From Candidatus Levyibacteriota bacterium (GTDB taxonomy: Bacteria > Patescibacteriota > Microgenomatia > Levybacterales > UBA12049): a DNA stretch of 64,000 bases. The notes beneath the pieces were generated by a model. That model saw only the letters and a program-made list of their open reading frames with translations. It made no database searches and was not told the DNA's origin. The stretch is taken from positions 451,488 through 515,487 of the forward strand of contig JACOXT010000003.1 of the NCBI GenBank assembly GCA_016182235.1, given 5' to 3'. Position numbers and translations under genes: made by a program. Numbering within the stretch: position 1 is the stretch's first letter; every line of letters begins with the position of its first letter. This document shows positions 1,796-61,957 of this stretch, piece by piece.

Positions 1796-2362
1796 ATGAA
1801 GATTGGCATAGATATATCTCAAATTGCATATGAAGGGACTGGAGTTGCGCGATACTTAAGGTCTCTGGTTGAAGAGCTCCTGAGAATTGATAAAAAGAAC
1901 GAGTATGTCCTTTTTTTCTCAAGCCTCAGAAGAAAAATTCCCTCCTTCGCCAAGGCTGCCTCCTTCGCCGAAGTGGCTACGAAGGCCGAGTCGGCGGGCA
2001 AGAGAAATTCCAAAATAAAGGCTTTTAGATTTCCCCCTTCTTTGTTAGATTTACTCTGGAATAGGCTGCATATTTTGCCGGTCGAGTGGCTAATTGGAGA
2101 TGTTGATATTTTTATTACTTCCGACTGGACGGAGCCTCCTGTACTTCGAGCAAAAAAGGCAACAATTCTATACGACCTTATTGTTTATAAATATCCTCAA
2201 GAAACAGATAAACATATTGTCGAGGTTCAAAAGCGAAAATTAGAATGGGCTAAAAAAGAATCAGATTTAATTTTTTGCATATCAGAGGCCACAAAGAAAG
2301 ATGCCATGGAAATCTTAGACGTTGAAGAGGAACGATTAAAGGTTATATTGCCGGGAGTGTGA
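1796..2362 (+). CDS. truncated GT4 glycosyltransferase, N-terminal Rossmann domain only (possible gene remnant)
   Basis: 188 aa. Starts MKIGIDISQ..GTGVARY like a GT4 N-domain and stops just after ...ILPGV, the position where the downstream GT4 has TYPGV. Lacks the C-terminal EX7E/nucleotide-sugar domain. Contains the GC-rich in-frame insertion at 1934-2011. Confidence 0.5.
   Translation: MKIGIDISQIAYEGTGVARYLRSLVEELLRIDKKNEYVLFFSSLRRKIPSFAKAASFAEVATKAESAGKRNSKIKAFRFPPSLLDLLWNRLHILPVEWLIGDVDIFITSDWTEPPVLRAKKATILYDLIVYKYPQETDKHIVEVQKRKLEWAKKESDLIFCISEATKKDAMEILDVEEERLKVILPGV
1934..2011. repeat. GC-rich ~60-bp in-frame insertion flanked by AAATTCC direct repeats inside the GT4 fragment
   Basis: agAAAAATTCC[ctccttcgccaaggctgcctccttcgccgaagtggctacgaaggccgagtcggcgggcaag]AGAAATTCCaaaat. 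The core contains palindromic CTTCGCCGAAG. Confidence 0.6.
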
Positions 2363-3564
2363 TTATGACTATTGGGATCAATGGATACGAAGCTGTAATG
2401 CCGAGGTTTGGATATGATTTTGAAACAAAACTGCCAAGAAGGGTCGGCAGCGGTGAATATTGTTTTGAACTCCTACTATATCTTAACAAAATTGATAAGA
2501 AAAACAAATATATAATATTTCTTCCCAAAACTCCAACAATGGATTTACCTAGGCAATCAGATAGCTGGCGATATAGGATTGTTGGGCCAAAGCGCTTTTG
2601 GACGATTTTTGGGTTATCAATGGAATTTTTGCTTAGGCGGTCTAAGGTAGACGTATTTTTCTCCCCAACTCATTATTTGCCTTTTTTTTTGCCAGTAAAA
2701 TCCGCTGTTTCTGTTTTAGATGTTTCCTTTATTCATTTTCCTAAGCTTTTTAAAAAGAAAGATCTGTATCAGCTTAAGAGTTGGACAGCTTATTCGGTAA
2801 GGAAAGCATCAAAAGTGTTAACGATTAGCCTGGCGTCAAAAGATGATATAATTAAGACATACAATGTTTCGAAGGAAAAGGTGATAGTTACATATCCCGG
2901 AGTAAAATCCGAAATTCAAATATCGAAATTCGAAACAAATGCAAAATTCAAAATGCAAAATTCAAAATTTCTTAAAGATAAGTACGGGGCTGAAGGGAAT
3001 TATATTTTGTTTGTGGGGACATTACAGCCCAGAAAAAATATAGTCCGTCTTATCGAGGCCTTTAGCCATATTTCTTCTTCTTTAATCATTAATCCTGCCT
3101 CGCCGGCAGGCAGGCCTTTATCGTTAATCATTGTGGGTAAAAAGGGTTGGTTATATGAGGAAATTTTGGAGACTCCCAAAAAGCTTAATATTGAGACGAA
3201 AGTAAAGTTTTTAGAAAATATTTCAGATGAAGATTTGCCTTATTTTTATAAAAACGCTTTATGTTTTGTTTTACCTAGCCTATATGAAGGGTTTGGCCTG
3301 CCAATTTTGGAAGCAATGAGATATGGGTGTCCGGTTATCACAAGTAATATCTCCTCGCTTCCCGAGGCAGGAGGAGACGCGGCTCTATACGTAGATCCTC
3401 TCAATGTAGACGATATTGCCAAAAAATTGGAATTAGTAATTAATAATGAAGATTTAAGGAAAAAACTTATAAAAAAAGGTTACGAACAAGTTAGGAAATT
3501 CAGTTGGGAGAAAACAGCAAGAGAAACATTAAGGGTATTGGAAGGTGTAGTAAATAATGAGTAG
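2359..3564 (+). CDS. GT4-family glycosyltransferase
   Basis: 401 aa with the C-terminal GT4 signature EGFGLPILEAMRYGCPVITS. Carries two in-frame mini-insertions (2905-2972 and 3082-3132). Confidence 0.85.
   Translation: MIMTIGINGYEAVMPRFGYDFETKLPRRVGSGEYCFELLLYLNKIDKKNKYIIFLPKTPTMDLPRQSDSWRYRIVGPKRFWTIFGLSMEFLLRRSKVDVFFSPTHYLPFFLPVKSAVSVLDVSFIHFPKLFKKKDLYQLKSWTAYSVRKASKVLTISLASKDDIIKTYNVSKEKVIVTYPGVKSEIQISKFETNAKFKMQNSKFLKDKYGAEGNYILFVGTLQPRKNIVRLIEAFSHISSSLIINPASPAGRPLSLIIVGKKGWLYEEILETPKKLNIETKVKFLENISDEDLPYFYKNALCFVLPSLYEGFGLPILEAMRYGCPVITSNISSLPEAGGDAALYVDPLNVDDIAKKLELVINNEDLRKKLIKKGYEQVRKFSWEKTARETLRVLEGVVNNE
2905..2972. repeat. AT-rich in-frame insertion with GAAATTC/AAAATTC tandem units in GT4
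   Basis: tccGAAATTCaaatatcGAAATTCgaaacaaatgcAAAATTCaaaatgcAAAATTCaaaatttc encodes SEIQISKFETNAKFKMQNSKF. Confidence 0.6.
3082..3132. repeat. GC-rich hairpin mini-insertion with perfect 9-bp direct repeat (TTAATCATT) inside GT4 CDS
   Basis: TTAATCATTaatCCTGCCtcgccGGCAGGcaggcctttatcgTTAATCATT. Repeat-to-repeat distance is 42 nt (14 codons), so it is in frame. Confidence 0.7.
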
Positions 3565-4127: not shown

Positions 4128-5018
4128 GTGATAGAACTCTCTATAATTATTCTTTCTTATAATACCAAAGATTTAACGCGTCGATGCATCCAATCAGTAA
4201 GAAAGCAATATAAAAAAGAACTGATAGACAAAAAATTGGAAATTATAGTTATTGACAATAATTCATCCGATGATTCTGCATCTTTATTGTCAGATCTTAA
4301 AAAAGAAATACTCGCCTCGCGGCGAAGCGGGTCAAATTTTACACTAATTCAAAATAGAGAAAATTTAGGATTTGCTAAAGGTTGCAATTTCGGCGCTAAA
4401 AACGCTAAAGGAAAATATCTTCTTTTTCTAAATTCTGATACTACAGTTCTAGATAGGGGATTTTTACGGATGACAGAATTTTTAGATAATCACAAAGAAG
4501 CTGGTATTTTGGGTGGAAGACTTCTGAATCCAAATGGTACTCCCCAACGATCGGGTGGAAAGTTTTATAACCTATGGTACCTTTTTTTAATGCTTTTAGG
4601 GTTGGAGGTGTTAGTAAGAAGATCACCTACTAAGATAGATAAGATTGATTGGGTAAGTGGGGCTTGCTTGATGATAGGAAAGAATCAATTCAATAATCTA
4701 TCTGGTTTTGATGAACATTTTTTCATGTACATAGAAGACATGGAATTATGCTATAGGATGAGAAAACTTGGTTTTTCAACTTATTTTTATCCTTTTGTTG
4801 GGATTGAGCATAAAACCCTAGGTAGCAGCAACAGATCATTTGCTATAATTAATATTTATAAGGGAATTCTCTATTTTTATTCAAAACACAAAAATCATCT
4901 AGAGTATTTAGTTGCCAAAACATTGCTTATCTCAAAAGCAGAAATTTTAATTTTGGTAGGATTTTTGACATTTAGCTCTGGGCTAAGGGATAGATACAGA
5001 AAGGCGGTAATGTTTTAA
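4128..5018 (+). CDS. GT2-family glycosyltransferase
   Basis: N-terminal IIILSYNTKD and VIDNNSSDDS with a DXD-like FLNSDT. Contains a GC-palindrome insertion at 4311-4332. Confidence 0.8.
   Translation: MIELSIIILSYNTKDLTRRCIQSVRKQYKKELIDKKLEIIVIDNNSSDDSASLLSDLKKEILASRRSGSNFTLIQNRENLGFAKGCNFGAKNAKGKYLLFLNSDTTVLDRGFLRMTEFLDNHKEAGILGGRLLNPNGTPQRSGGKFYNLWYLFLMLLGLEVLVRRSPTKIDKIDWVSGACLMIGKNQFNNLSGFDEHFFMYIEDMELCYRMRKLGFSTYFYPFVGIEHKTLGSSNRSFAIINIYKGILYFYSKHKNHLEYLVAKTLLISKAEILILVGFLTFSSGLRDRYRKAVMF
4311..4332. repeat. GC-rich palindromic core CTCGCCTCGCGGCGAAGCGGGT inside GT2 CDS
   Basis: Same core family as the copies at 29026-29047 and (reverse complement) 45518-45538. Confidence 0.6.
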
Positions 5019-8237: not shown

Positions 8238-9719
8238 ATGAGGAAGTTTGAGATTTTTGCGTTGGCAGTTATTCTTATTGGGGCGTTTACAGTTAGGTTA
8301 TATAGGTTCGACTGGCCGGTTGCGGATTGGCACAGTTGGCGTCAGACTGACACATCGGCAGTTTCCCGAAATTTTGTAAGAGAAGGTTTCGACATATTCC
8401 GTCCCAAATTTGATGATTTATCTTCCGGTGTTTCTTTAATCGATAACCCAGAAGGTTACAGGTTTGTTGAATTTCCTATCTATAATGTGTTTCAAGCCAT
8501 TCTTTATCAGCAAATCGGTAAATTTACACTTGAGGAATGGGGAAGAGTAGTAACTATCTTTTCTTCCCTAATTTCGATAGTTTTTCTTTACCTTCTAGTT
8601 GCAAAGTACACGAATTCTCGCACCGGACTTTTGGCTTCTTTTTTCTTTGCTCTCATTCCATATAATATTTTTTATGGTCGCACCATTCTTCCCGATCAAT
8701 CTATGGTTGCATCACTTCTTGCAGGAACATACTTTTTTTCAAATTGGATGGAAAATAAAGACTTCAAATTTTCGATTTTCAATCTTCAATTTTTTCTAGC
8801 TGTCTTACTTATGGCGATGGCTTTACTTTTGAAGCCTTACGCTTTGTTTTTTACTTTGCCTTTGGTTTATCTTGCATGGAGTCGTTTTGGCTTTGGCTTT
8901 TTAAAAAAATGGCAGCTTTGGGCTTATTTTATTCTGGCAATTTTGCCTTTGATCTTGTGGCATATATGGATGAGTCAAAGGGAGTTTATTCAAGGAATTC
9001 CGCGTAATGATTGGTTATTTAATGGTAACGGCATTAGATTTAAAGGAGCATTTTTTCATTGGCTTTTTGGAGACAGAATAGGTCGTCTTATCTTGGGATA
9101 CTGGGGATTGCCTTTTGTTGTTTTGGGAATCATAAGGAAAATCAATAGAAAAGAAAATTGGTTTTTTTATTTTTTTATAGTTTCCTCTCTTGCCTATATG
9201 ACAATTTTAGCAACAGGAAATATCCAGCACGATTATTATCAAATTCTTATTGTTCCAACCCTTTCAATTTTTCTTGCAAAGGGTGTAGACCTTATACTTA
9301 GCAGTAAAGAATTTTTTAACCGGTCAGTTTCTTATATAATAATTGCTGGTGGAATTATTTTTATGTTAGCCTTCGGTTGGTTTGGGGTCAGGGATTATTA
9401 CAGCATTCAGCACCCGAACCTTATAGCTGCGGGACTCGCAGTTGACGAGCTTACTCCGAAAGATGTAAAAATTATTGCGCCCTATGGCGGGGATACAACC
9501 TTGTTATACCATACCAATCGAAAAGGCTGGCCGGTTTTTGACAGATCTTTTAAGGATTTTAAGAAAGCAGGAGCATCTTATATTGCCTTTGCTGATCCAA
9601 CGCCAGAGGAACTAAATTTAGAAACGTTATTCGAGCCTGTAATTATCACCCCTCAATACGCAATATTTGATCTTACAAAACCCACTCTGCAAGGCTTAAG
9701 AGAACAGAAAAAAGATTAA
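8238..9719 (+). CDS. GT39/GT83-like (ArnT/PMT-type) membrane glycosyltransferase
   Basis: N-terminus RLYRFDWPVADWHSWRQTDTSAVSRNF is the typical PMT_2/ArnT-like signature. Has about 11 TM helices. Contains a heptamer tract at 8763-8795. Confidence 0.7.
   Translation: MRKFEIFALAVILIGAFTVRLYRFDWPVADWHSWRQTDTSAVSRNFVREGFDIFRPKFDDLSSGVSLIDNPEGYRFVEFPIYNVFQAILYQQIGKFTLEEWGRVVTIFSSLISIVFLYLLVAKYTNSRTGLLASFFFALIPYNIFYGRTILPDQSMVASLLAGTYFFSNWMENKDFKFSIFNLQFFLAVLLMAMALLLKPYALFFTLPLVYLAWSRFGFGFLKKWQLWAYFILAILPLILWHIWMSQREFIQGIPRNDWLFNGNGIRFKGAFFHWLFGDRIGRLILGYWGLPFVVLGIIRKINRKENWFFYFFIVSSLAYMTILATGNIQHDYYQILIVPTLSIFLAKGVDLILSSKEFFNRSVSYIIIAGGIIFMLAFGWFGVRDYYSIQHPNLIAAGLAVDELTPKDVKIIAPYGGDTTLLYHTNRKGWPVFDRSFKDFKKAGASYIAFADPTPEELNLETLFEPVIITPQYAIFDLTKPTLQGLREQKKD
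8763..8795. repeat. TTCAATT/TTCGATT heptamer tract inside GT39-like CDS (encodes FKFSIFNLQFF)
   Basis: ttcaaattttcgattttcaatcttcaatttttt. Related to the ileS AATTTTC tract. Confidence 0.6.
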
Positions 9720-11879: not shown

Positions 11880-13033
11880 AAATTGGTATTGACGCAAGAC
11901 TTTGGAACGAAGGAGGGGTAGGAAGATACATAAGAAATCTAATTAAGCAAATTCAGCCTTTAGATAAAAGTAATCTTTATACTTTGTTTGTTTTGTCTAA
12001 AGACTATGAAAGTATTAAGTACGAAGTATCAAGTATTAAGGAGGAAAATTGGGAACTTATAAAGACAAATATTCGGTGGCATTCGATTGAGGAGCAGTTA
12101 AAGTTTGCTAACATTTTAAACAAAGAAGAATTAGATTTGGTGCATTTTCCCTATATTTCGGTGCCGTTGAATTATCAAAAGCCATTTATCATTACAATAC
12201 ACGATTTAATTCCATATCATTATCCTTCTTCAAATGCTTCCGCTCTCCCTTTCCCTATTTACTTCTTAAAATTATTGGCATATAAATTTGTGGTGAGAGC
12301 CGCAGCAAGAAAAGCGCAAAAAATTATCGCGCCCTCAAATTTTACAAAAAAGGAAATTGTAGAACATCTAAAAATTGATCCAAGAAAAGTAATAGTAACT
12401 TACGAAGGAGTAAATAGTAAAATTACAAATTCAAAATCTCAAATTCCAAAAAAATCCCAAAATACTAAATACAAAATACTAAATACAAAATACTTTTTAT
12501 ATGTAGGAAACGCGTTTCCGCATAAGAATCTTGAGGTATTGATAGAAGCTTTCAATCTTTTCCGTCAAGAGCATCCTGGTATTTTTCTTGTCTTTGTCGG
12601 CAAGGAGGATTTCTTCTACAGTCGATTAAAAAATGAGGTTTACAAGCGTAAAATTTCAGACGTAGTTTTTTTACATAATATAATTGATGGGCAATTAGTA
12701 AGTTTGTACAGAAGCGCAATTGCATTTGTTTCACCTTCTCTTATGGAAGGATTTGGTCTGCCGGTTCTTGAGGCAATGGTAAATAGATGTTTGGTTTTGG
12801 CATCGGATATTCCAACACATCGAGAAATTTGTGGCAAGGTTGCCTTATACTTTGATCCTAATAATGTTGGGGATCTAACTCAAAAACTAGAATCCATTCA
12901 CTCTAATGATATGTATTATTATAGTGAAAAAAAAAGGGGGTTTGATCGAGCGAAAGTGTTCTCTTGGGAAAAGATGGCAAGAGAAACTTTAAAAATATAT
13001 GAAAGTTGCGTTGGTTTACGACAGAGTGAATAA
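11876..13033 (+). CDS. GT4-family glycosyltransferase
   Basis: C-terminal EGFGLPVLEAM. Contains the AT-rich in-frame insertion at 12418-12493. Confidence 0.8.
   Translation: MKIGIDARLWNEGGVGRYIRNLIKQIQPLDKSNLYTLFVLSKDYESIKYEVSSIKEENWELIKTNIRWHSIEEQLKFANILNKEELDLVHFPYISVPLNYQKPFIITIHDLIPYHYPSSNASALPFPIYFLKLLAYKFVVRAAARKAQKIIAPSNFTKKEIVEHLKIDPRKVIVTYEGVNSKITNSKSQIPKKSQNTKYKILNTKYFLYVGNAFPHKNLEVLIEAFNLFRQEHPGIFLVFVGKEDFFYSRLKNEVYKRKISDVVFLHNIIDGQLVSLYRSAIAFVSPSLMEGFGLPVLEAMVNRCLVLASDIPTHREICGKVALYFDPNNVGDLTQKLESIHSNDMYYYSEKKRGFDRAKVFSWEKMARETLKIYESCVGLRQSE
12418..12493. repeat. AT-rich ~70-bp in-frame insertion (A/C/T heptamer-like tracts) in GT4, homologous to the murE copy at 29515-29585
   Basis: aaaattacaaattcaaaatctcaaattccaaaaaaatcccaaaat... 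encodes KITNSKSQIPKKSQNTKYKILNTKY. The murE copy is aaaattccaaactcaaaatctcaaattacaaataaatccaaaatt. Confidence 0.65.
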
Positions 13034-24652: not shown

Positions 24653-27600
24653 TCAATTGTTATTTCTCTTAAAATGTTCTCTTATTTTTTCAACTAATTC
24701 AGGAGAGTAGTGTTCGCTTTGAATATTTCTTCTTCCTCTTAAAATTCTAAACCATTCAGGATGATCCTCTCGAAATTGGGTAGCGAATTCACTAACTCGG
24801 GGACTTATTATACCTAGTTCTTTAGCCAAAGTAGTTTTATTTAACCAACCAACTTCCAAATCTGAAGGCCTAGCATTCTCTTGTTTTATCAACGAGGTAA
24901 GTTCTGGAGATACAAAGTAACCAATGTGGCGACTTTCATTCCGAAATACTCCCAAAAGGGTTGGGTGAGATTCTTTATACTGACTTAACAATCTTAATAC
25001 AGAAGCTTCAGATAACCTCAGGTTATTAGATAGTTCAATCGTATTTGACCAGCCAGGTGGTGGCGCTACTACTTCCAAATACTCATTTTTTATCAGTTCT
25101 ACTAATTCAGGTGAAAAGTATTGAGACAGATGGTGTTTTCTTCCTACCAATACTTTAAAATATTCAGGATGTGATTTTCCGTATCTTTTCACGTAGAATC
25201 TAACATTGACAGCATCAATACCAAAAATTTGTTCTATATCATAACTATTCATCCATCCTGTTGGAGGGGTTTCTCTACCTATAATTTCATTTCTTAATAG
25301 CTTTTCTATTTCAGGAGCAACATATTCTCGTACCTTACTTTTTTGTCTTTCTCGATCAATATATATTCTAAAGAGCTGTGGGTAAGTTTTACGATACTCT
25401 TCAATTCTTTTATTTACAGTTGTTCTAGAAATGCCTAATTCTTTGTGAATAACACTATGGTCAATCCATCCTTCATCTGGTTTATTAAGAAGCAGAGTGA
25501 TTTCATCTCTAAGTAAAGTAGCAAGCTCTGGAGAAAAATGCTCAGAAATTCTACCGCCTTGTGTCGTTCTGAACAATTGAATTCCCTCGGCTTGAATGTC
25601 TCTATTTTTTCCTACAAGTGTATTAATAACAGCTGTACTGATTCCAAACTCTTTTCCTAGTAAACTTGGACGCACCCAGCCCTCGCTAGCAACTGGAACT
25701 TTATCTAATTTTGTCTTTAAATAATCAATGATAGAAGCTGATATATATTCTGCGACTCTTCCTCCTCTTTTTTTGAATATTCCAAACATTTCAGGATGAC
25801 TTTCTTTATATCTTGCAGTGAATCTTTTAATAGTTTTTCTATCAACTTTTAATAAACGGGCAGCCTCTCTTTCCGTTACCCAACCTTCAGGTGGAATGTC
25901 AGCAGTTACTAGATTGTCTCTTGTCTGTTGTCTAATTATACCAACTAATTCAGGAGATAAGTATTCAATTATTTGCCCTCCTTCTCTTTTGAAAACTCTA
26001 AAATATCTTGGGATATTTACTCGATATTCATTAATAATTCTTCTAAGCGTTGGGCGCGAGATATTTAACTCACTTTCGATTGAAGTTAAACTTTGCCATC
26101 CTTCTATTGAAGCCTGTAATTTTTCTTTTGTATCTTTGATCATTTCTACCAATTTGGGGGAAACATATTCGTACACCCGTCCTCTAGAGCTACGAAATAA
26201 TTTAAAATCTTCCGAGTATAAGTCTCTTAGGTTGTCTAAAATTCGACGCATAGTTTGCGGACCAACTCGATAAGTGTTATTTAAAGCTGTAATGCTTAAC
26301 CACCCTTCCTGAACAGGTTGATACTTTTGTTCAACCACCTGTTGAACAATTTTCATTACCTCTTCGGCTTCTGTGATAACTTTTAAGCCGTAAATCTCTA
26401 TTTGAGGGTAAAGTATAGTTCCGGTGTCGGTATCTTCTCTAGGATAATCTGGAGGATTATCTTTCCTAAATATATGGGCAGATTCTAGTATTTGAGCAAA
26501 TGAAACCGGAAAACGATTCGGATCTCCAAAATTGTCTATAAAGTCGACGATATAGGCATGCTTGAATGGATTGGCTGGGTCCGGTCTTAATACGCGTCCA
26601 GCCCTTTGTTCAGCAACCACAGGAGATGCAGTTGGTCGAAGATTAAGACATACATTGACGCTAGGATCATCAAAACCCTGTATAAGAAGATCGGCATTAC
26701 ATAATACCTTTATTTCCCCTGTTTTGTATTTTCTTAATATGGTTTTCTGTTCTGCTGGCAACTGATATCCGCTAACAACTGCTGCCTTTATACCATTTTC
26801 TTCAAAACGTTTAGCTAAATCTGTCGCATGATTAACTGTGACACAATAAGCTAATGCCTTTTGATCTAGGAACATAGCTTTATATAGATCGACCGCAGCT
26901 GAATTTCGAGTTGTTATGTTTATTGCTCGTTCAAGATCTTCATCCTTATACTCCCCTGTGCTTGTTATTTTAACTTCACTTAAATCAACATCTGTTTTTC
27001 CAATATACACAGATAAAGAAGAAAGCATCCCCAGCTCTATTGCTTCTCTAATAGGCATGCTATGAATCTCGGTATTTAGCAGGTTACCCAGGTGTTTATC
27101 TTTTGTGTATCTAGGAGTTGCAGTAAAACCAAGTTTTACAGCGTTTGTAAACTTGCGTACTGCTTCCATTCTTCTTGGGCTTAACGATTCATGTGCCTCA
27201 TCCAAAATAAGCAGTTCGTAATCTTCAGGTTTCATTTTTACCGACTCAACATCTTTTAAAAACGACGCATACGTAATAATTGTTACTGGTTTTTCATATT
27301 CTTTTGATCGCGCATAAACTTTTCCAGTTTCAACAGTCGGCGCAAACTCTTCAAATCTCTCTTCTGTTTGGTCAACCAAGATTTGCGTCGGCACAACTAT
27401 GAGAGTTTTAAGGTCGGTGGCTTCGACAAACTCGGTAAATACTACAGTTTTTCCAGAACCAGTAGGCAATCGTATATAACCTTCTGTAACTCCTTCCTCA
27501 ATAGATTTTCTCAATGCTTCAAATGCGTTCATTTGAGGATCAAAAAGAGTTCTCTCGTCTTCGTTTTGGGAATAATAGGTATTAATATATCTATCAAGTG

Positions 27601-27853
27601 CGTTGAGAGCATGTATTCTCCTTTCATATAATAGATTAGGTTCTTCATTTCTTTTTTGTCTGCGTAAAGTATCAACATACACTTTGTATCTGGTAGGAAA
27701 TTTTTCTTTAAGTTCGCTTGAAGTTGTATCAAATAGTACTCCATTATCTAACATTGGAGATATGGGACTACCTAAAGCTTCTGAAACATTGTTAACTTGC
27801 CTACCAAGTTGTTCTATTGTTTTTGGTTTTGCTCGCTCGATCATAGCCAGCAA
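24653..27853 (-). CDS. SF2 helicase (ResIII/XPB-like core) fused to eight tandem ~68-aa winged-HTH-like (excisionase/MerR-like) repeats
   Basis: Walker A LPTGSGKTV, DEAH box ILDEAHE and motif VI QRAGRVLR fall within aa 125-425. From aa 516, eight repeats follow the pattern EGW-x6-LAKELGISRxTV-x6-YRxxHPExF-x7-GGR-x3-EY(F)SPELVxxI. Confidence 0.85.
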   Translation of the reverse strand: MLAMIERAKPKTIEQLGRQVNNVSEALGSPISPMLDNGVLFDTTSSELKEKFPTRYKVYVDTLRRQKRNEEPNLLYERRIHALNALDRYINTYYSQNEDERTLFDPQMNAFEALRKSIEEGVTEGYIRLPTGSGKTVVFTEFVEATDLKTLIVVPTQILVDQTEERFEEFAPTVETGKVYARSKEYEKPVTIITYASFLKDVESVKMKPEDYELLILDEAHESLSPRRMEAVRKFTNAVKLGFTATPRYTKDKHLGNLLNTEIHSMPIREAIELGMLSSLSVYIGKTDVDLSEVKITSTGEYKDEDLERAINITTRNSAAVDLYKAMFLDQKALAYCVTVNHATDLAKRFEENGIKAAVVSGYQLPAEQKTILRKYKTGEIKVLCNADLLIQGFDDPSVNVCLNLRPTASPVVAEQRAGRVLRPDPANPFKHAYIVDFIDNFGDPNRFPVSFAQILESAHIFRKDNPPDYPREDTDTGTILYPQIEIYGLKVITEAEEVMKIVQQVVEQKYQPVQEGWLSITALNNTYRVGPQTMRRILDNLRDLYSEDFKLFRSSRGRVYEYVSPKLVEMIKDTKEKLQASIEGWQSLTSIESELNISRPTLRRIINEYRVNIPRYFRVFKREGGQIIEYLSPELVGIIRQQTRDNLVTADIPPEGWVTEREAARLLKVDRKTIKRFTARYKESHPEMFGIFKKRGGRVAEYISASIIDYLKTKLDKVPVASEGWVRPSLLGKEFGISTAVINTLVGKNRDIQAEGIQLFRTTQGGRISEHFSPELATLLRDEITLLLNKPDEGWIDHSVIHKELGISRTTVNKRIEEYRKTYPQLFRIYIDRERQKSKVREYVAPEIEKLLRNEIIGRETPPTGWMNSYDIEQIFGIDAVNVRFYVKRYGKSHPEYFKVLVGRKHHLSQYFSPELVELIKNEYLEVVAPPPGWSNTIELSNNLRLSEASVLRLLSQYKESHPTLLGVFRNESRHIGYFVSPELTSLIKQENARPSDLEVGWLNKTTLAKELGIISPRVSEFATQFREDHPEWFRILRGRRNIQSEHYSPELVEKIREHFKRNNN

Positions 27854-27910
27854 ATTTTATAACAATATGCCTTTTATTACAAACTTCTATACTATGTTAT
27901 ACTGGATTGT

Positions 27911-28518: not shown

Positions 28519-29757
28519 ATGCTACAGAGAATTAAGAATATTTATCACCTTGGAAATGGCATTCTGGGTAATTTGCGGTTTGGGTTTCCATCACATAAGC
28601 TTACTGTAATAGGCGTTACCGGAACTGATGGTAAAACAACAACTACAAGTCTAATATACCATGTCCTTTCTACATCTGGACGAAATGCATCGATGATAAG
28701 CTCAGTTGGGGCAGTAATAGGAGGAAGAGAGTATGATGTGGGATTTCATGTTACAACTCCTTCTTCCTGGGCGCTTCAGAAGTTTATTAAAGAGGCAGAA
28801 AAGGGCTTTCTGGTTCTTGAGACGACGTCTCATGCCTTGGATCAATTTAGAGTTTGGGGAATAAAATTTGACATTGGAGTTTTAACCAATATCACCCATG
28901 AACACCTAGATTACCACAAGACTTACCATAAATACGTTGAGGCAAAAGCAAAGCTTCTTGAAATGAGCCGAGTAGCGATTGTGAATAGAGACGACAAATC
29001 ATACCCGTTAATAAATTCGAAATTCGCTCGCCTCGCTGCGAAGCGGGAAATTCGAAATTCGAAATTAATTACCTATGGGATGAAAGATAATGCGGATTTA
29101 AATCCAAAAAAATTTCCATTTAAAACAAATATGATTGGAGAGTTCAATATTTACAACAGTCTTGCCGCAATAGCGGTATGTAGAGCTCTTGGTATTCCAG
29201 ATGAAGATATTAGAACGGGTTTAAAGTCATTTAAGCCTCCGATTGGCAGAGAAGAAGTAGTTTATAAGAAAGATTTTACCGTTATGATTGATTTTGCACA
29301 TACACCTAACGCCTTTGAGGAAATTCTGAGTTCAATTAAACCGAGTATAAAAGGCAGACTTATTCACGTATTTGGGTCGGCGGGACTTAGAGACAATACC
29401 AAAAGACCAATTATGGGGAGAGTCTCATCAAAATATGCGGATATTATTGTTTTGACCTCTGAAGATCCAAGATCGGAATCGGTTGAGAAGATTTCAGACG
29501 AGATAGAATCAGGAATAAAAATTCCAAACTCAAAATCTCAAATTACAAATAAATCCAAAATTCAAATATATAAAATTCCAAATCGACAAGAAGCAATTCA
29601 ATTTGCTATTAAGATTGCTAGAAAAGGAGATTTGGTCTTGACAACGGGGAAATCGCACGAAAAATCAATGAATTATGGACATGGAGAAGTTCCGTGGGAC
29701 GAGTACAGCGCTGTACGAAAAGCATTAAAAGGTTTGGGATTAAAGATTAAGGATTAA
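28519..29757 (+). CDS. murE: UDP-N-acetylmuramoyl-tripeptide ligase (MurE-type Mur ligase)
   Basis: P-loop VIGVTGTDGKTTT and a C-terminus GDLVLTTGKSHEKSMNYG resembling MurE GKGHE. Start set at ATG 28519 (MLQRIKN). Carries two in-frame mini-insertions (29014-29066 and 29515-29585). Confidence 0.75.
   Translation: MLQRIKNIYHLGNGILGNLRFGFPSHKLTVIGVTGTDGKTTTTSLIYHVLSTSGRNASMISSVGAVIGGREYDVGFHVTTPSSWALQKFIKEAEKGFLVLETTSHALDQFRVWGIKFDIGVLTNITHEHLDYHKTYHKYVEAKAKLLEMSRVAIVNRDDKSYPLINSKFARLAAKREIRNSKLITYGMKDNADLNPKKFPFKTNMIGEFNIYNSLAAIAVCRALGIPDEDIRTGLKSFKPPIGREEVVYKKDFTVMIDFAHTPNAFEEILSSIKPSIKGRLIHVFGSAGLRDNTKRPIMGRVSSKYADIIVLTSEDPRSESVEKISDEIESGIKIPNSKSQITNKSKIQIYKIPNRQEAIQFAIKIARKGDLVLTTGKSHEKSMNYGHGEVPWDEYSAVRKALKGLGLKIKD
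29014..29066. repeat. mini-insertion in murE: GAAATTC heptamer duplications flanking GC palindrome GCTCGCCTCGCTGCGAAGCGGG
   Basis: aaattcGAAATTC[gctcgcctcgctgcgaagcggg]GAAATTCGAAATTCGAAATT. In frame. Confidence 0.7.
29515..29585. repeat. AT-rich in-frame insertion in murE, homologous (~85% over ~50 nt, same reading frame) to 12418-12493
   Basis: Encodes KIPNSKSQITNKSKIQIYKIPNRQ. The tail tccaaaattcaaatata matches tccgaaattcaaatatc of the copy at 2905-2972. Confidence 0.65.
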
Positions 29758-31196
29758 TGATAAAAAAAATAAGATATATTCACTTCGCAGGGGTAAAAGG
29801 TGTTGGCATGGCTCCTCTTGCGATTATTGCCAAGGAAGCCGGAATAAATGTAACTGGCTCAGACATTGAAGACGAATTCATCACTGATGAGCTTCTTGAA
29901 AAAGCAAATATTAAGCCTTTTGTTGGTTTTTCAAAAAAAAATATCAAAGACCCAGATCTTGTTATTACAACAGGCGCACATGGCGGATTTGATAATTTAG
30001 AAGTTAAAGAGGCAAAGAGGAAAAAAATCAGAGTTATGACACAAGGCGAGGCAGTGGGTCTTTTTATGGATGGAACGATCTTTGGGAGAAGATTTACTGG
30101 AATTTCAGTAACTGGAACACATGGTAAAACGACAACAACAGCTATGGTAGCAACGATTCTTAAAGAAGCAAATCTTGACCCCTCATATGTTGTTGGAACA
30201 GGTTTTGTGCCGTCTCTTGGATCATCAGGGCACTTAGGGCAAGGAAAGTATTTTGTTTCAGAAGCCGATGAATATATAACAGAACCAAAATATGATAGAA
30301 AAATAAAATTCATGTGGCAAAACCCCAAAATTGCGGTTATTACAAACATAGAGTTTGATCATCCGGATGCTTATAAAACAATTGATGACGTAAAAGAAGC
30401 GTTCAAAAAATTCCCTAGCAAACTTCCAAAAGATGGCATATTAATTACCTGTGGCGATGATCATGAAGTAAGGAAGCTTTTTAAAGCTTATAAAGGGAAC
30501 AGAATTACGTATGGATTTTCAAAAGATAACGACTTTACAGTCAGCGAGGTCCGACCTTGTAATGACGGTAAGAAATATAAAGGCATACTAGAATTTAGGG
30601 TTATGAGAAAAAATCAAGATTTTGGAAAGTTCTATCTTAATGTTTTTGGCATACATAATGCTCTTAATGCCACTGCGGCATTTGTTGTGGGGCATAATCT
30701 TGGTTTGAATACACACAGTATTAAAAAAGGTTTGCTTGCATTTCAAGGCACAAAAAGAAGATCGGAATTTATAGGTGCACTAAAATCCGGTGCTAGGGTT
30801 TTCGACGATTACGCGCATCATCCAACAGAAATAAAAAACACACTTAGGGGATTTAAACAGAATTTTTCGAATATAAAATTAGTATGCATATTCCAGCCAC
30901 ATACCTACTCTCGAACAAAATCATTGTTCGAACAATTTTCTAAATCGTTTACGGATGCTGATATACTCATACTAACAAATATTTTTGCGTCCCTTCGTGA
31001 GAAAAAAGATCCTGAAATGTCATCTGAGCTTTTAGCAAATGAGGCTAGAAAATATAACAAGGAAGTATATTTCAAGCCTGCGCTTTCAGATGTGGTAAAA
31101 TATGTCAATTCTAAAAAATACGGGAAAGACACGATTATCATTACAATGGGAGCAGGAGACGTATATAAAATAAGTGAAGGGTTAAGATTACATTAA
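29757..31196 (+). CDS. murC: UDP-N-acetylmuramate--L-alanine ligase
   Basis: IHFAGVKGVGMAPLA and GTHGKTTTTAM with the Mur ligase C-terminal domain. Confidence 0.85.
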   Translation: MIKKIRYIHFAGVKGVGMAPLAIIAKEAGINVTGSDIEDEFITDELLEKANIKPFVGFSKKNIKDPDLVITTGAHGGFDNLEVKEAKRKKIRVMTQGEAVGLFMDGTIFGRRFTGISVTGTHGKTTTTAMVATILKEANLDPSYVVGTGFVPSLGSSGHLGQGKYFVSEADEYITEPKYDRKIKFMWQNPKIAVITNIEFDHPDAYKTIDDVKEAFKKFPSKLPKDGILITCGDDHEVRKLFKAYKGNRITYGFSKDNDFTVSEVRPCNDGKKYKGILEFRVMRKNQDFGKFYLNVFGIHNALNATAAFVVGHNLGLNTHSIKKGLLAFQGTKRRSEFIGALKSGARVFDDYAHHPTEIKNTLRGFKQNFSNIKLVCIFQPHTYSRTKSLFEQFSKSFTDADILILTNIFASLREKKDPEMSSELLANEARKYNKEVYFKPALSDVVKYVNSKKYGKDTIIITMGAGDVYKISEGLRLH

Positions 31197-45006: not shown

Positions 45007-46143
45007 ATGAAAGTTGTAGTAATAGGAGGCCATTTATCTCCAGCGTTATCCGTAATCGAAGCGCTGCCAAAAGAGGTAAGTATATTATTTGTTGGAAGAA
45101 AATATTCTTTTGAGGGAGATAAGTCAAAATCTTTGGAATACGAGACCATTAATTCTCTTAAGTTTCCTTTTGCTGAGATTACTACAGCAAGGTGGCAAAG
45201 AAAGTTTACAAGACACACTATTAATTCGCTCTTTAAATTTCCTATTGGAGTTATTCAGTCGTTATTTATTTTATTAAGATTTAAGCCAGATGTTGTTGTT
45301 GGATTTGGAGGGTATGTGTCTCTGCCAGTTGCTATATCTTCTTTTATCCTAAGAGTTCCCGTTGTAATTCACGAGCAGACTTTGGAGGCAGGTTTTTCAA
45401 ATAGAATAATTTCGGTATGGGCTTCTAAGATATGTATATCATGGGAGTCATCACGCTCATTTTTTCCAAAAGAAAAAACGGTATTGACAGGAAACCCGAT
45501 ACGGAAGTTCGAAGTTCCCGCTTCGCAGAGAGGCGAGCGAAGTATGAAGTATGAAGTTGATAAGAAGGTTCCTACAATTTATATAACCGGTGGAAGTTCG
45601 GGATCGCATTTTATCAACAAATTAGTCGAAGGTTGTATTGGGGAACTGCTGAGAAAATTCAACATAATCCATCAGATTGGAGAGTCAAAATTTGGCGATT
45701 TTGAACGCTTAGTAAAGCTTCGTGAGACATTTTCTTTTGATCAACGCAAAAGATATATTTTAAAAAAATTTGTTAAACCGTCCCAAGTTGCCTCAATTTT
45801 AAAATATTGCGATTTAGCTATATCACGTTCGGGTATAAATACAATAACAGAACTTATTTATTTTGAAAAACCAGCTATTCTAATACCCCTCCCATTTTCT
45901 CAAAATAACGAACAATTGAAAAACGCAAGATTTTTGGAGACGTTCAAATTAGGAAAAGTATTGTCTCAAAACGAAGCTGACTCAAGAAGCTTATCTCAAA
46001 TGGTAGACTTAATATTTGATAATATAAAAGAGCATAAGTTAAATGAGAGCGAATCAGCGAAGAGGCAAATAGAAAATGCGGCTCAAAATATAGTTAAGAT
46101 TGTTGAATATGTCGGTGAAACAAAGAAAGTCCCGAAATTATAG
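45007..46143 (+). CDS. murG: undecaprenyldiphospho-muramoylpentapeptide beta-N-acetylglucosaminyltransferase
   Basis: N-terminal VIGGHLSPALSV and a GT28 C-terminal domain. Carries the GC-palindrome insertion at 45504-45558. Confidence 0.8.
   Translation: MKVVVIGGHLSPALSVIEALPKEVSILFVGRKYSFEGDKSKSLEYETINSLKFPFAEITTARWQRKFTRHTINSLFKFPIGVIQSLFILLRFKPDVVVGFGGYVSLPVAISSFILRVPVVIHEQTLEAGFSNRIISVWASKICISWESSRSFFPKEKTVLTGNPIRKFEVPASQRGERSMKYEVDKKVPTIYITGGSSGSHFINKLVEGCIGELLRKFNIIHQIGESKFGDFERLVKLRETFSFDQRKRYILKKFVKPSQVASILKYCDLAISRSGINTITELIYFEKPAILIPLPFSQNNEQLKNARFLETFKLGKVLSQNEADSRSLSQMVDLIFDNIKEHKLNESESAKRQIENAAQNIVKIVEYVGETKKVPKL
45504..45558. repeat. mini-insertion in murG: GAAGTTC/GAAGTAT heptamer duplications flanking GC palindrome CCGCTTCGCAGAGAGGCGAGC (reverse orientation of the murE core)
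   Basis: GAAGTTCGAAGTTC[ccgcttcgcagagaggcgagc]GAAGTATGAAGTATGAAGTT. In frame. Confidence 0.7.
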
Positions 46144-53154: not shown

Positions 53155-53169
53155 GCTAATATTAAGTTT

Positions 53170-60898: not shown

Positions 60899-61957
60899 AT
60901 GAATGTTTTATTTTTATCTCGCTTATTTTATCCCCATATTGGAGGTGTCGAGAAGCACGTTTTGGAAATAAGTAAGATTTTGGTTGAAAAAGGACACAAA
61001 ATAACAATTATTACAGAACAATACTCAAGAGACCTTCCGAAAGAAGAAGATTTTAACGGAATTAGAGTATTAAGAATATTTACAGGACAAGACGATTGGT
61101 TTAAGAAATTTAGAATCTGGAAAGAATTGTTTAAATTAAAAAAACTAATCAGAAATGCTAGCATAGTCCATTGTCACGATGTGTTTTTTTGGTACTTCCC
61201 ATTTCTTTTTTTATACCCCAAGAAAAAAGTATATGTGACATTTCATGGGTATGAAGATTACCCGATTCCCAAAAAGGCGGTATTGGTAAGAAGACTCTCT
61301 GAAAAATTATCTAAGGGAAATATATGTATTGGAGACTTTATGAAAAAATGGTATGGAACAGAACCAACATTTGTGACATACGGAGGGGTTGACAAATATC
61401 AAATATCAAACATTAAATATCAAAAAGATGAGAGATTAAAAGATCCAAATTCTGCAGTCTTTGTTGGCAGATTGGATGAGCAGACAGGAATAAAAACTTA
61501 TTTGAAAGCTTTTAAGATGATAAAGAAGAAAATTAAAAATTTTAAATTATTGGTGGTAGGAGACGGTAAATTCAAAAAACATATTGTTAAAAATGTTCGA
61601 GGAGTAGGTTTTCAGTTGAACCCAGAAAAATATATTAGAGAATACCGATTTGCATTTGTTTCTCGCTATCTATCAATTCTTGAAGCCTTTGTCTCAAAAA
61701 GACTAGTCTTTGCCGTTTACGATAACCCTTTGAAGGAAGATTATCTTAAAATGTCTCCATTTGCGAAATATATAATTGTTGCCAGAAATTCAAAAAAACT
61801 TTCGGACGCAGTTTTTTACTTTTTAAACAATCCGAATGAAGAGAAAAAAATGCTAAACAAAGCGTATAATTGGGTTAATAAGCAGACATGGGAAAAAGTG
61901 ACAGACACATATTTGAATCTTTGGGGTTTCAAGACAGAAAATATAATTTTTCCTTGA
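60899..61957 (+). CDS. GT4-like glycosyltransferase
   Basis: N-terminus MNVLFLSRLFYPHIGGVEKHVLEISKIL has the GT4 N-domain pattern. Carries the AAATATC heptamer tract at 61394-61421. Confidence 0.6.
   Translation: MNVLFLSRLFYPHIGGVEKHVLEISKILVEKGHKITIITEQYSRDLPKEEDFNGIRVLRIFTGQDDWFKKFRIWKELFKLKKLIRNASIVHCHDVFFWYFPFLFLYPKKKVYVTFHGYEDYPIPKKAVLVRRLSEKLSKGNICIGDFMKKWYGTEPTFVTYGGVDKYQISNIKYQKDERLKDPNSAVFVGRLDEQTGIKTYLKAFKMIKKKIKNFKLLVVGDGKFKKHIVKNVRGVGFQLNPEKYIREYRFAFVSRYLSILEAFVSKRLVFAVYDNPLKEDYLKMSPFAKYIIVARNSKKLSDAVFYFLNNPNEEKKMLNKAYNWVNKQTWEKVTDTYLNLWGFKTENIIFP
61394..61421. repeat. (AAATATC) heptamer tandem tract inside GT4-like CDS (encodes KYQISNIKYQ)
   Basis: aaatatcaaatatcaaacattaaatatc. 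Confidence 0.7.

Follow-up and report, generated by a model that had tools for sequence, protein, structure and literature searches.

The window, that is the whole 64-kb stretch of DNA analysed here, contains a glycosyltransferase gene of the GT4 type. In Pfam, the encoded protein has a Glyco_transf_4 N-domain (PF13439, 30.9 bits) and a Glycos_transf_1 C-domain (PF00534, about 131 bits), and the gene order GT4, hexapeptide transferase, and GT2 is common to the window and the GT4 orthologues. The annotated proteins of a Candidatus Levybacteria MAG include an identical one (P0001); its contig has 600,876 bp and belongs to a single assembly. As the first-pass annotation had recorded, the gene includes two identical 9-mers, TTAATCATT, whose starts are 42 nt apart, and between them the GC hairpin CCTGCC tcgcc GGCAGG (3094-3110). 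Both 9-mers and the hairpin are in phase with the reading frame, the translation of which contains ...SSSLIINPASPAGRPLSLIIVGKKGW.... The coordinates are collected in Table 1, together with those of the 21-bp modules of two families, 'c' and 'a'.

Table 1. Features of the GT4 gene and copies of the two 21-bp modules, in positions of the window.
Feature	Position	Strand	Basis
Host gene, GT4 glycosyltransferase, 401 aa	2359..3564	+	ORF list, translation, Pfam
Left half of the AT-rich tract, TCT TTA ATC ATT AAT, including the first TTAATCATT (3082-3090); predicted loop after helix 226-239	3079..3093	+	
Module 'c', CCTGCCTCGCCGGCAGGCAGG, 21 bp, GC-rich palindrome, codes for P246-R252 (PASPAGR)	3094..3114	+	codon-aware alignment
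Right half of the AT-rich tract, CCT TTA TCG TTA ATC ATT, including the second TTAATCATT (3124-3132)	3115..3132	+	
Module 'a', CTCGCCTCGCGGCGAAGCGGG, 21 bp, codes for LASRRSG, variable loop of the neighbouring GT2 gene	4311..4331	+	
Module 'a' with 1 mismatch, codes for ARLAAKR, in the AAATTCG array of a Mur ligase gene	29027..29047	+	
Module 'a' with 2 mismatches, reverse orientation, codes for PASQRGE, in the GAAGTTC/GAAGTAT array of murG	45517..45537	-	

The extent of the insertion was defined by a codon-aware alignment with the orthologues L001, L002, L003, L087, and L088. The gap is exactly 21 columns and abuts neither 9-mer. The hairpin-less L001 and L003/L004 read TTAATCATT AAT CCT TTA TCA TTAATCATT, with the two 9-mers 21 nt apart. 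The orthologues provide an exact empty site, in which the insert peptide PASPAGR is absent as a 7-residue gap. The earlier proposal that the GC-rich segment is an insertion, and that empty sites should be sought in related sequences, is borne out by this site. The size proposed for the inserted element, 33 nt plus a 9-bp duplication, does not hold. The insert is exactly 21 nt (7 codons) and not 33 nt, because L001 and L003/L004 carry both 9-mers without the hairpin. Its placement is ambiguous by a 3-nt CCT repeat, and 3097-3117 is equally possible. The gain of the hairpin in the window lineage is argued from its absence in the other 119/119 top homologues and not from the NJ tree of the 120 GT4 homologues. 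This tree is star-like, does not group the window with the tract-bearing orthologues, and gave no polarity (gain or loss) for the AT-rich tract. A profile search of genome contigs with the GT4 alignment returned only about 8 close relatives and missed the genome of the window itself, the result being swamped by the generic PSLYEGFGL pattern.

The two 9-mers are best understood together with the AT-rich tract in which they lie. In L003 the tract reads TCATTAA TCATTAA TCCTTTA TCATTAA TCATT, that is, tandem 7-nt units, and variants of it, also hairpin-less, are found in L002, L087, and L088. The tract is identical to that of L001 at 37/39 positions, compared with only 67% identity for the whole gene. 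These alignments show that both TTAATCATT copies are units of an older TCATTAA-like heptamer tract which predates the hairpin. The spacing is 42 nt because the three heptamers (21 nt) and the insert (21 nt) add up. The 21-bp module joined this older period-7 tract in frame and without a detectable target-site duplication. Repeats of this kind are frequent in the window, where 9-mers are repeated within 60 nt at 103 positions versus 39 ± 10 in Markov-1 controls, because it is AT-rich and dense in period-7 arrays. TRF gave 16 period-7 and 5 period-14 rows among 55, and at least 16 further period-7 array loci are present besides the hairpin tract. The TTAATCATT repeat is real and is kept in the orthologues, yet it is not statistically remarkable alone.

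These observations bear directly on the interpretation of the 9-mers as a target-site duplication, in which an element of about 33 nt was inserted and duplicated its 9-bp target TTAATCATT. Two perfect 9-mers do flank the hairpin, and perfect direct repeats also abut both sides of some other copies (e.g., 14 bp at 29013-29061). However, the same 9-mers stand 21 nt apart in orthologues that have no hairpin, the 21-nt gap adjoins neither of them, and 9-mer repeats are common in the window. The empty (L212) and filled sites of the Mur ligase have equal numbers of units, and the abutting repeats elsewhere are array units. We regard target duplication as highly improbable.

In the AF2 model of the GT4 protein, a helix spans residues 226-239 and a β-strand residues 254-259, with pLDDT below 50 across residues 243-251. 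The model places the 21-nt insert in a putative loop that leads from the first helix of the C-terminal Rossmann domain to its second strand. The insertion site is hypervariable among the 120 GT4 homologues. The right flank of the hairpin aligns with the strand xLxL[VI]I[VI]G, which is conserved in 120/120 homologues, and the second TTAATCATT codes for the LII of this native strand (LSLIIV by AF2 secondary structure). The in-silico deletion suggested in the first-pass annotation speaks for an insert of 7 residues and not of 14. The fit to the GT4 Pfam domain improves when 7 residues are removed (Glycos_transf_1 score of 136.0 bits versus 131.5 bits for the native protein) and does not when 14 are removed (131.5 bits). 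The 14-residue deletion leaves a loop of 9 residues, while the minimum among the 120 homologues is 11. The 14-residue segment, whose occurrence in homologous GT4 proteins was named as counter-evidence, is half present there: P0061, P0075, P0013, P0112, and P0020 have 7/14 residues (NP...LSLI).

The window has a single CCTGCC-tcgcc-GGCAGG pattern, and 0/100 shuffles contain one. DNA folding favours a 7-bp stem (CCTGCCT/AGGCAGG) with a 7-nt loop at -6.6 kcal/mol (z = -1.3), and RNA folding of the hairpin context gives -15.3 kcal/mol (z = -1.65). Since these z-scores are weak (63-nt context), thermodynamics alone fails to single out the hairpin. The GC hairpins match no known RNA family, because the search of Rfam at gathering thresholds gave one tRNA only.

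The LII ... LII arrangement was also noted earlier as the geometry of a programmed translational bypass, in which the ribosome leaves the first LII (or CCT) and lands on the matched codons past the hairpin, so that the insert is not translated. The matched codons do exist, CCT...CCT stands directly around 18 nt, and a GC hairpin in an AT-rich genome recalls the byps of yeast mitochondria. A bypass predicts the peptide LIEAFSHISSSLIIVGK, or ...LIINPLSLIIVGK / ...SLIINPLSLIIVGK, without LIEAFSHISSSLIINPASPAGR, which is the tryptic peptide predicted for read-through of the insert. The geometry is not diagnostic, however, as the hairpin-less orthologues carry LII...LII too. The match is automatic, because 21 nt entered a tract with a codon period of 21 nt. 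The gap has no stop or frameshift; module 'c' is stop-free in all six frames, its length is a multiple of three, and a stop-free 21-nt module would never require bypass. None of the codons is rare or starved: AAT after LII is used at 35.7 per 1000, GCC after CCT at 7.5 per 1000, and the codons of the insert at 6.7-20.3 per 1000. A jump from LII to LII would yield the same 9-residue loop, shorter than in any of the 120 homologues, and the Mur ligase and MurG copies have no matched flanking codons. Taken together, bypass is very unlikely in our view.

The sister module 'a' shows a comparable association with period-7 arrays. Exact CTCGCCTCGCGGCGAAGCGGG is also present in other assemblies (L085, L214, and twice in L215), the sister module thus being shared with further Levybacteria, and the family consists of the three members in the window and those in L085, L213, L214, and L215. 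L212 (P0204) contains an unbroken AAATTCG x4, which is the exact empty counterpart of the Mur ligase site and equals the filled one in its number of units. Exact copies lie within TAATTTC and CAACTTT arrays of L214 and L215, and in L215 the core and one heptamer are tandemly duplicated. The same arrays were hit independently in different lineages and frames, giving the peptides SPRGEAG, LASRRSG, PASPRGE, and ARLAAKR. The Mur ligase and MurG copies are in the proteins P0121 and P0241, each found identically on 2 contigs (ncbi and Logan).

The exact 21-mer of module 'c' was found on at least 120 metagenome contigs with 119 different flanks. The contigs come from JGI, ENA, and NCBI assemblies, and nearly all have a GC content of 0.30-0.50, with sources such as Hainich groundwater. 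Module 'c' is a widespread mini-repeat of uncultivated low-GC bacteria, the contigs being known by GC and source alone. Of 122 copies, 59 lie in frames that stay open for 40 codons or more in both directions, and six of six frames are used. In L116, the module lies 29 nt downstream of tRNA-Trp and outside the tRNA as delimited by ARAGORN. Viral contigs have 3 exact copies of module 'c' and 0 of module 'a', which is uninformative. An unbiased scan for GC-rich cores between identical heptamers recovered mainly the 21-mers of modules 'c' and 'a' and a few cores of 24-30 nt. A length of 21 nt is therefore typical of these two families and not universal.

A local de novo origin, through slippage or the correction of a quasi-palindrome, or an artefact of assembly could be suspected from the GCAG duplication in GGCAGGCAGG and from the occurrence of the GT4 protein on a single contig. 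Against this, the exact 21-mer is present on at least 120 independent contigs, half of the copies being in frame in ORFs, and the sister copies on the Mur ligase and MurG proteins were recovered identically in a second, independent assembly. We give these two explanations hardly any credence.

The flanks of the exact module 'c' copies show how far the preference for arrays extends. The 7 nt on the left match the 7 nt on the right at 6/7 or more in 22/119 copies, where 0.2 are expected, and no comparable excess was seen for flank matching at 3-6 or 8-12 nt. The heptamers concerned are unrelated (CGAAATC, CAGTCAC, CAAAATA, TTTGAGA, and others). Clear heptamer repeats accompany 18% of the exact copies, and the other 82% have none. 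The target rule is not simple, because many copies are nested in or beside other GC-rich palindromes. In 50-59% of copies a C stands next to the module, but a conserved tetranucleotide was not seen.

An enrichment of flanking repeats that is specific to 7 bp could reflect transposition with a 7-bp target duplication, followed by excision that leaves the duplication as a footprint. Cycles of this kind would build the arrays, and orthologues without a hairpin would have lost it by excision. Core-less arrays at protein sites where other lineages hold cores agree with this proposal. However, the 7-bp repeat accompanies only 18% of the copies that are exact and hence young, and the filled and empty Mur ligase sites do not differ in unit number. 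Each 28-nt step would frameshift the essential Mur ligase and MurG genes. Orthologous sites have unrelated heptamers, whereas separate sites of a single genome have heptamers in common; repeats derived from the target should show the reverse. This model appears improbable.

Another alternative accepts the same object but supposes that no dedicated transposase spreads it. Short-homology recombination, gene conversion, or template switching in replication or repair would carry copies of the 21-mer from one heptamer array to another, with the arrays acting as regions of homology and slippage-prone landing pads. In its favour, copies lie within arrays with no duplication made, and the same heptamer family recurs at several sites, in both orientations, within one genome. 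For example, ATTGGAA occurs twice in one L085 gene, the TTAATCA family is found at 1260/1415/1861 of L088 and at 3079/29738 of the window, and the 29027 and 45517 copies have similar flanking heptamers. The tandem duplication of the core with one heptamer in L215 also fits, and a transposase was not found in the scan of the window or beside the copies. The exact core is nevertheless present in arrays of many unrelated heptamers, and 82% of the copies have no array at all. Flank homology is therefore not the general vehicle, and we consider such copying rather unlikely, although clearly ahead of the footprint and duplication models.

The 21-bp GC palindromic modules belong to a dispersed family, with copies in either orientation and in any frame and with a preference for heptanucleotide arrays. 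We think it probable that they are tiny REP/RPE-like palindromes which colonise such arrays and are translated. The ribosome would read the GT4 module through as seven extra loop residues, PASPAGR, which the protein would tolerate. The module would spread as a non-autonomous REP/RPE-like hairpin element. In the mechanism that we prefer, the folded single-stranded hairpin would integrate into AT-rich heptamer arrays, which may be easily unwound or slipped, by means of a putative trans-acting factor and without target duplication. Filled and empty alleles side by side in one population were not seen. The comparison of roughly 34 ORFs of the 64-kb window with Pfam gave no transposase domain, the genome being at least 600 kb in size. 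An all-against-all ORF comparison of 120 loci with module 'c' gave no enriched neighbour family, transposase-like or other.

More tentatively, the modules may be ultra-small mobile modules of a class not described before, from genomes of the CPR/Patescibacteria type. Such modules could specifically colonise heptanucleotide microsatellites in the loops of essential proteins in a structure-directed and duplication-free manner, adding quanta of 7 residues and perhaps stabilising frameshift-prone arrays. The literature searched did not describe modules of this kind from CPR bacteria, and this absence is not proof of novelty. Should the dispersed family be what it seems, the module would be the smallest in-frame palindromic insertion element known to us and a concrete source of variation in protein length that can be counted in the reduced genomes of uncultivated Patescibacteria, including the essential cell-wall enzymes Mur ligase and MurG. 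The array association would tie the bacterial excess of 7-nt repeats to dispersed GC hairpins in AT-rich genomes, and the exact pairs of filled and empty sites are material for testing the mechanism. For annotation, the modules would explain the recurring CPR peptides PASPAGR, LASRRSG, SPRGEAG, and xLPAGEAG, and array units should not be mistaken for target-site duplications or bypass signals.

Several known systems resemble parts of this picture. Heptanucleotide tandem repeats are described as over-represented in bacteria (Mrazek et al., 2007, as cited in PMC4692102), and other heptanucleotide repeats are the cyanobacterial STRR and, separately, the TAACTGA repeats (PMC4679880). The tract around the hairpin is likewise a period-7 array. 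The published repeats are mainly intergenic, whereas those of the window lie in frame in loops of conserved proteins and host GC-rich 21-mers. REP sequences are characterised as GC-rich imperfect palindromes of 20-40 bp (PMC3733652, PMC2817692), with a GTAG or CGTC tetranucleotide tag at one end (PMC3733652). They are mobilised by RAYTs, Y1 transposases similar to those of IS200/IS605. Like the REP/REPIN-RAYT system, the module is a short GC palindrome with many dispersed copies in both orientations and without target-site duplication; it would also be non-autonomous and plausibly move as a single-stranded hairpin. The tag is found neither within nor abutting either 21-mer. REPs are extragenic and number hundreds per genome, whereas the modules are about half in ORFs and a few per 64 kb; the window copies of both families are inside genes (GT4, GT2, Mur ligase, and MurG). 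To our knowledge, REPs do not favour heptanucleotide arrays. No RAYT/Y1 transposase was found among roughly 34 scanned ORFs of the 64-kb window, and none is enriched near the copies.

With MITEs, the likeness is limited to the 7-bp arms, which could pass as inverted repeats, whereas the empty and filled pairs of the GT4 and Mur ligase sites show no duplication. The byp elements of Magnusiomyces, the GC clusters of yeast mitochondria, and T4 gene 60 share the short GC hairpin in an AT-rich genome, its location in genes, and the matched codons. However, the gaps of byp and gene 60 are untranslatable, because they contain stops, shift the frame, or place a stop or hungry codon behind the take-off site, whereas the insert described here is stop-free, has ordinary codons, and is a multiple of three. 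The palindromic elements of Rickettsia (RPEs), reportedly described by Ogata and colleagues in 2000, are said to be palindromic repeats inserted in frame in protein genes and translated as additional surface segments that the fold accommodates. The module resembles them as an in-frame palindrome in protein genes, including essential ones, at a permissive surface segment and in a form compatible with the fold. It differs in that RPEs measure about 100-150 bp and are confined to Rickettsia, whereas the module has 21 bp (7 residues), is found in low-GC genomes of the CPR type, and is associated with period-7 arrays.

The GT4 glycosyltransferase gene carries two in-frame copies of TTAATCATT around a GC hairpin (translation ...AFSHISSSLIINPASPAGRPLSLIIVGKKGW...), and this layout, described in the first-pass annotation, was confirmed. 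Its protein is identical to one from a Candidatus Levybacteria MAG (600,876-bp contig). The hairpin pattern occurs once in the window, whose GC content is 36%, and in 0 of 100 shuffles. The 9-mer pair is real yet not exceptional, because a second exact copy of a 9-mer within 60 nt is frequent here (103 window positions vs 39 +/- 10 in Markov-1 controls).

Aligning the 120 best GT4 homologues (62-72% identity) revealed a hypervariable hotspot between AFSxI and xLxLVIVGKKGW. Its AF-to-VG loop ranges from 11 to 34 residues; a short version (AFSKI-K-NDIQLVIVG) is the most frequent. The hairpin is present in 0 of the other 119 homologues of this set. Several orthologues (P0061, P0075, P0013, P0112, and the P0020 group) contain ...S(S)LIINPLSLIIVG, which is the window sequence less seven residues. 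At the DNA level, the related locus L001 (TCT TTA ATC ATT AAT CCT TTA TCA TTA ATC ATT GTC GGT) has two TTAATCATT copies spaced by 21 nt without the GC hairpin; L003 and L004 have the same tract, and L002, L087, and L088 have variants. Because AAT and CCT are separated by exactly 21 gap columns in the codon-aware alignment, the insertion is CCTGCCTCGCCGGCAGGCAGG, coding PASPAGR, with a placement ambiguous by 3 nt (CCT) only. The GC segment had been read as an insertion flanked by duplicated 9-mers. The insertion stands, supported by an exact empty site in orthologues, at a size of 21 nt. The 9-mers are excluded from it and are not a target-site duplication, since both predate the insertion, being present in the hairpin-less L001, L003, and L004, and neither abuts it. 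The older tract has a period of 7 (TCATTAA TCATTAA TCCTTTA TCATTAA TCATT in L003), which places identical codons every 21 nt; the 21-nt insert brings this to the 42-nt spacing noted earlier.

With the seven residues removed, the protein scored better against Pfam Glycos_transf_1 (136.0 bits, up from 131.5), while the proposed deletion of 14 residues returned the score to 131.5 and left a 9-residue loop, below the minimum of 11 among the 120 homologues. The module is located in a surface loop. In the AlphaFold model (mean pLDDT 84), the residues coded by the hairpin form a loop together with the first LII, and the second LII is part of the native beta-strand, since the model places the strand LSLIIV there. 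Bypass of the gene-60 type is defined by take-off from a codon within the 5' side of a stem, with a stop or starved codon next in line, by landing on a matched codon, and by a gap impossible to translate (10.1101/2022.08.31.505936). The GT4 gap is an open frame and a multiple of three, the codon after the first LII is AAT (35.7 per 1000), the insert codons have frequencies of 6.7-20.3 per 1000, and matched LII codons also occur in hairpin-less orthologues, so the suggested take-off/landing site is not borne out. A subtler variant, a CCT-to-CCT ribosome jump, is conceivable, but matched codons do not flank the sister copies of Mur ligase and MurG, and bypass therefore does not characterise the family.

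The GC hairpin does exist as a repeated object, with a wider distribution than could be known from the window. The discrete 21-bp module, here called 'c', has exact copies in at least 120 metagenome contigs. Among the matches listed, nearly all contigs have a GC content of 30-50%, all 119 usable copies differ in their flanks, and 59 of 122 lie in frames that stay open for 40 codons or more on each side. Copies occur in both orientations and all six frames (PASPAGR 14, xLPRRQAG 14, xLPAGEAG 21, and others, among the matches listed), and none of the six frames contains a stop codon. Two loci (L162 and L173) have two exact copies each, within 1-3 kb.

The module strongly prefers period-7 arrays. 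The 7-nt left and right flanks match at 6 or more of 7 positions in 22 of the 119 copies among the matches listed, against 0.2 expected from random positions of the same loci; flank matches of 3-6 or 8-12 nt showed no comparable excess around these copies. The flank-matched copies sit within heptanucleotide arrays whose units vary widely in sequence, for example cagtcaccagtcac[c]cagtcaccagtcac, cgaaatc[c]cgaaatc, and caaaata[c]caaaatacaaaata, where [c] is one copy of the module. Further copies are found within or next to different GC-rich palindromes. L147 has a CTTAAAC array in which a perfect-palindrome variant, CCTGCCTGCCGGCAGGCAGG, precedes 'c' by 14 nt.

A sister 21-mer, 'a' (CTCGCCTCGCGGCGAAGCGGG), has 14-15 of 21 positions in common with 'c', with compensatory stem changes. 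At its Mur ligase site, nearly all 120 orthologues have a heptamer-encoded peptide (NSKFKIQNSK, SNFKFLISK, and others), and P0195 and P0204 read NSKFEIRNSKL, the window protein minus the module-encoded residues. The DNA of P0204 (L212) is an uninterrupted AAATTCG x4 with the unit number of the window, and by its sequence represents a second exact empty site without duplication. Exact empty sites without target duplication are therefore found in two genes. The same arrays have been struck recurrently and independently; in other lineages the same module occupies them at different positions and frames, with SPRGEAG in P0159 (L214, exact) and LASRRSG in P0179 (L213, 1 mismatch) for Mur ligase, and SPRGEAG, PASPRGE, TASQRGE, and LAS(R/L)RSG for MurG. 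A MurG gene from Hainich groundwater (L215, 1001-2158) has two exact 'a' copies with one CAACTTT between them, a 28-nt tandem unit. A second assembly yielded identical sequences for the Mur ligase and MurG proteins with 'a' copies, which argues against an artefact. In many MurG orthologues (P0254, P0267, P0274, P0293, P0296, P0326, and others), the heptamer-encoded peptide is interrupted midway by only 4 extra residues (PAGK, AAAG, SAGG, EASG), which may stem from short GC palindromes or from decayed 21-mers.

Coordinates of the features (window positions unless a locus or residues are named)
Feature	Position	Strand	Host	Detail
GT4 ORF	2359..3564	+		Pfam PF00534 + PF13439
TTAATCATT 9-mers	3082-3090, 3124-3132		GT4	
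Hairpin CCTGCC-tcgcc-GGCAGG	3094-3110		GT4	
Helix	residues 226-239		GT4	AlphaFold model
Low-confidence loop	residues 243-251		GT4	AlphaFold model; IINPASPAG
Strand LSLIIV	residues 254-259		GT4	AlphaFold model
'a' copy	4311		GT2 gene	LASRRSG
'a' copy, 1 mismatch	29027		Mur ligase	ARLAAKR; AAATTCG array
'a' copy, 2 mismatches	45517	-	MurG	PASQRGE; GAAGTTC/GAAGTAT array
Exact 'a' copy	L085 13633		GT4 paralogue, another genome	ATTGGAA array
Period-7 arrays (among others)	2904-2969, 8767-8793, 12010-12040, 12420-12494, 45539-45557, 54498-54530, 55757-55788, 61393-61424			

Period 7 is the dominant tandem-repeat class of the window (16 of 55 TRF rows, with 5 of period 14). Published cases of heptameric repeat excess in bacteria, tentatively ascribed to polymerase slippage, are mainly intergenic (PMC4692102; PMC4679880). 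Many arrays of the window are in frame within conserved genes. A tRNA-synthetase ORF (53155-56094) holds AAAGTCA x4.7 and AATTTTC x4.6, and the first array of the table, which belongs to the GT4 gene with the hairpin, falls on the model's other low-confidence segment (residues 185-196). The AT-rich TTAATCA/TTTATCA tract (3079-3132 vs L001 and L003) is 92-95% identical, and the GT4 genes are 67% identical in nucleotides. The same family occurs in reverse orientation at 29738-29767 (-), L088 1260 and 1861 (-), and L086 5498 (-). Because one family recurs at several sites within one genome in both orientations, the arrays themselves seem to behave as dispersed or homogenised repeats. An indel census against orthologues over about 15 kb found two types of in-frame inserts in this lineage: AT-rich, heptamer-derived ones, often exactly 21 nt (SKFETNA, LNSKSEK, NWKLEIA), and GC-rich palindromic ones of 21, 36, or 51-57 nt. 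In the closest orthologues, L085 (4054-5262) and L086 (4309-5520), the same helix-to-strand loop holds instead a 56-62-nt imperfect palindrome, GTCATCCTGA...TCAGAATGAC, translated as CHPERSEGSRDSS.../CHPELVSGSQ...; the loop was thus independently struck by a different, larger palindromic repeat family. L085 14160-14222, in a GT4 paralogue, was recorded alongside this palindrome.

Directly upstream of the complete GT4 gene, with a 4-nt overlap, ORF 1796-2362 encodes 188 aa with a GT4 N-terminal domain only. At 1950-2004 it contains a ~60-nt GC-rich composite (repeated CCTCCTTCGCC, a CCTTCG...CGAAGG hairpin, and TCGGCGGGC) that lies between AGAAA(A)ATTCC repeats and encodes PSFAKAASFAEVATKAESAGK; at the same site L086 has a shorter version, and L003 has an AT-rich heptamer-type peptide only. 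A 23S_rRNA_IVP gene (four-helix-bundle, bAvd-like) lies directly upstream of GT4 in L002 (427-798), L003 (1126-1470), and L004, and in L003 it stands between the N-domain-only ORF and the complete GT4. A 1067-aa ORF at 24656-27856 (-) combines a ResIII/DEAD helicase core with HTH_29, HTH_23, and HTH_28, on the opposite strand where GC skew reverses (24-28 kb). Such HTH domains are frequent in transposase N-termini.

The module is presumably translated and tolerated, and probably spreads as a non-autonomous hairpin element. We tentatively propose that a single-stranded hairpin might integrate into AT-rich arrays that have slipped or unwind easily, in a REP/RAYT- or IS200/IS605-like manner. The core length is exactly three heptamer units. 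The main alternative, array-to-array copying via short-homology recombination or template switching, seems to us rather unlikely. A 7-bp duplication followed by excision, which would build the arrays, is disfavoured: the 7-bp repeat accompanies only 18% of exact copies among the matches listed, filled and empty sites are equal in unit number, every step would frameshift essential genes, and unrelated heptamers occur at orthologous sites while separate sites of one genome have heptamers in common. A search of ~34 ORFs in the window, which covers about a tenth of the genome, found no transposase, nor was one found near the metagenome 'c' copies among the matches listed.

We found no description of such a module in CPR bacteria in the literature searched. 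A gene-60-type bypass cassette has an untranslatable gap, whereas the GT4 insert is translatable, and a MITE duplicates its target, whereas the module does not. Like REPs, the module is a short GC palindrome making no duplication, but REPs are extragenic and have a GTAG/CGTC tag, and the module is neither extragenic nor tagged. Although the module differs in size from the Rickettsia RPE, it resembles that element in its in-frame, presumably translated insertion in permissive loops.
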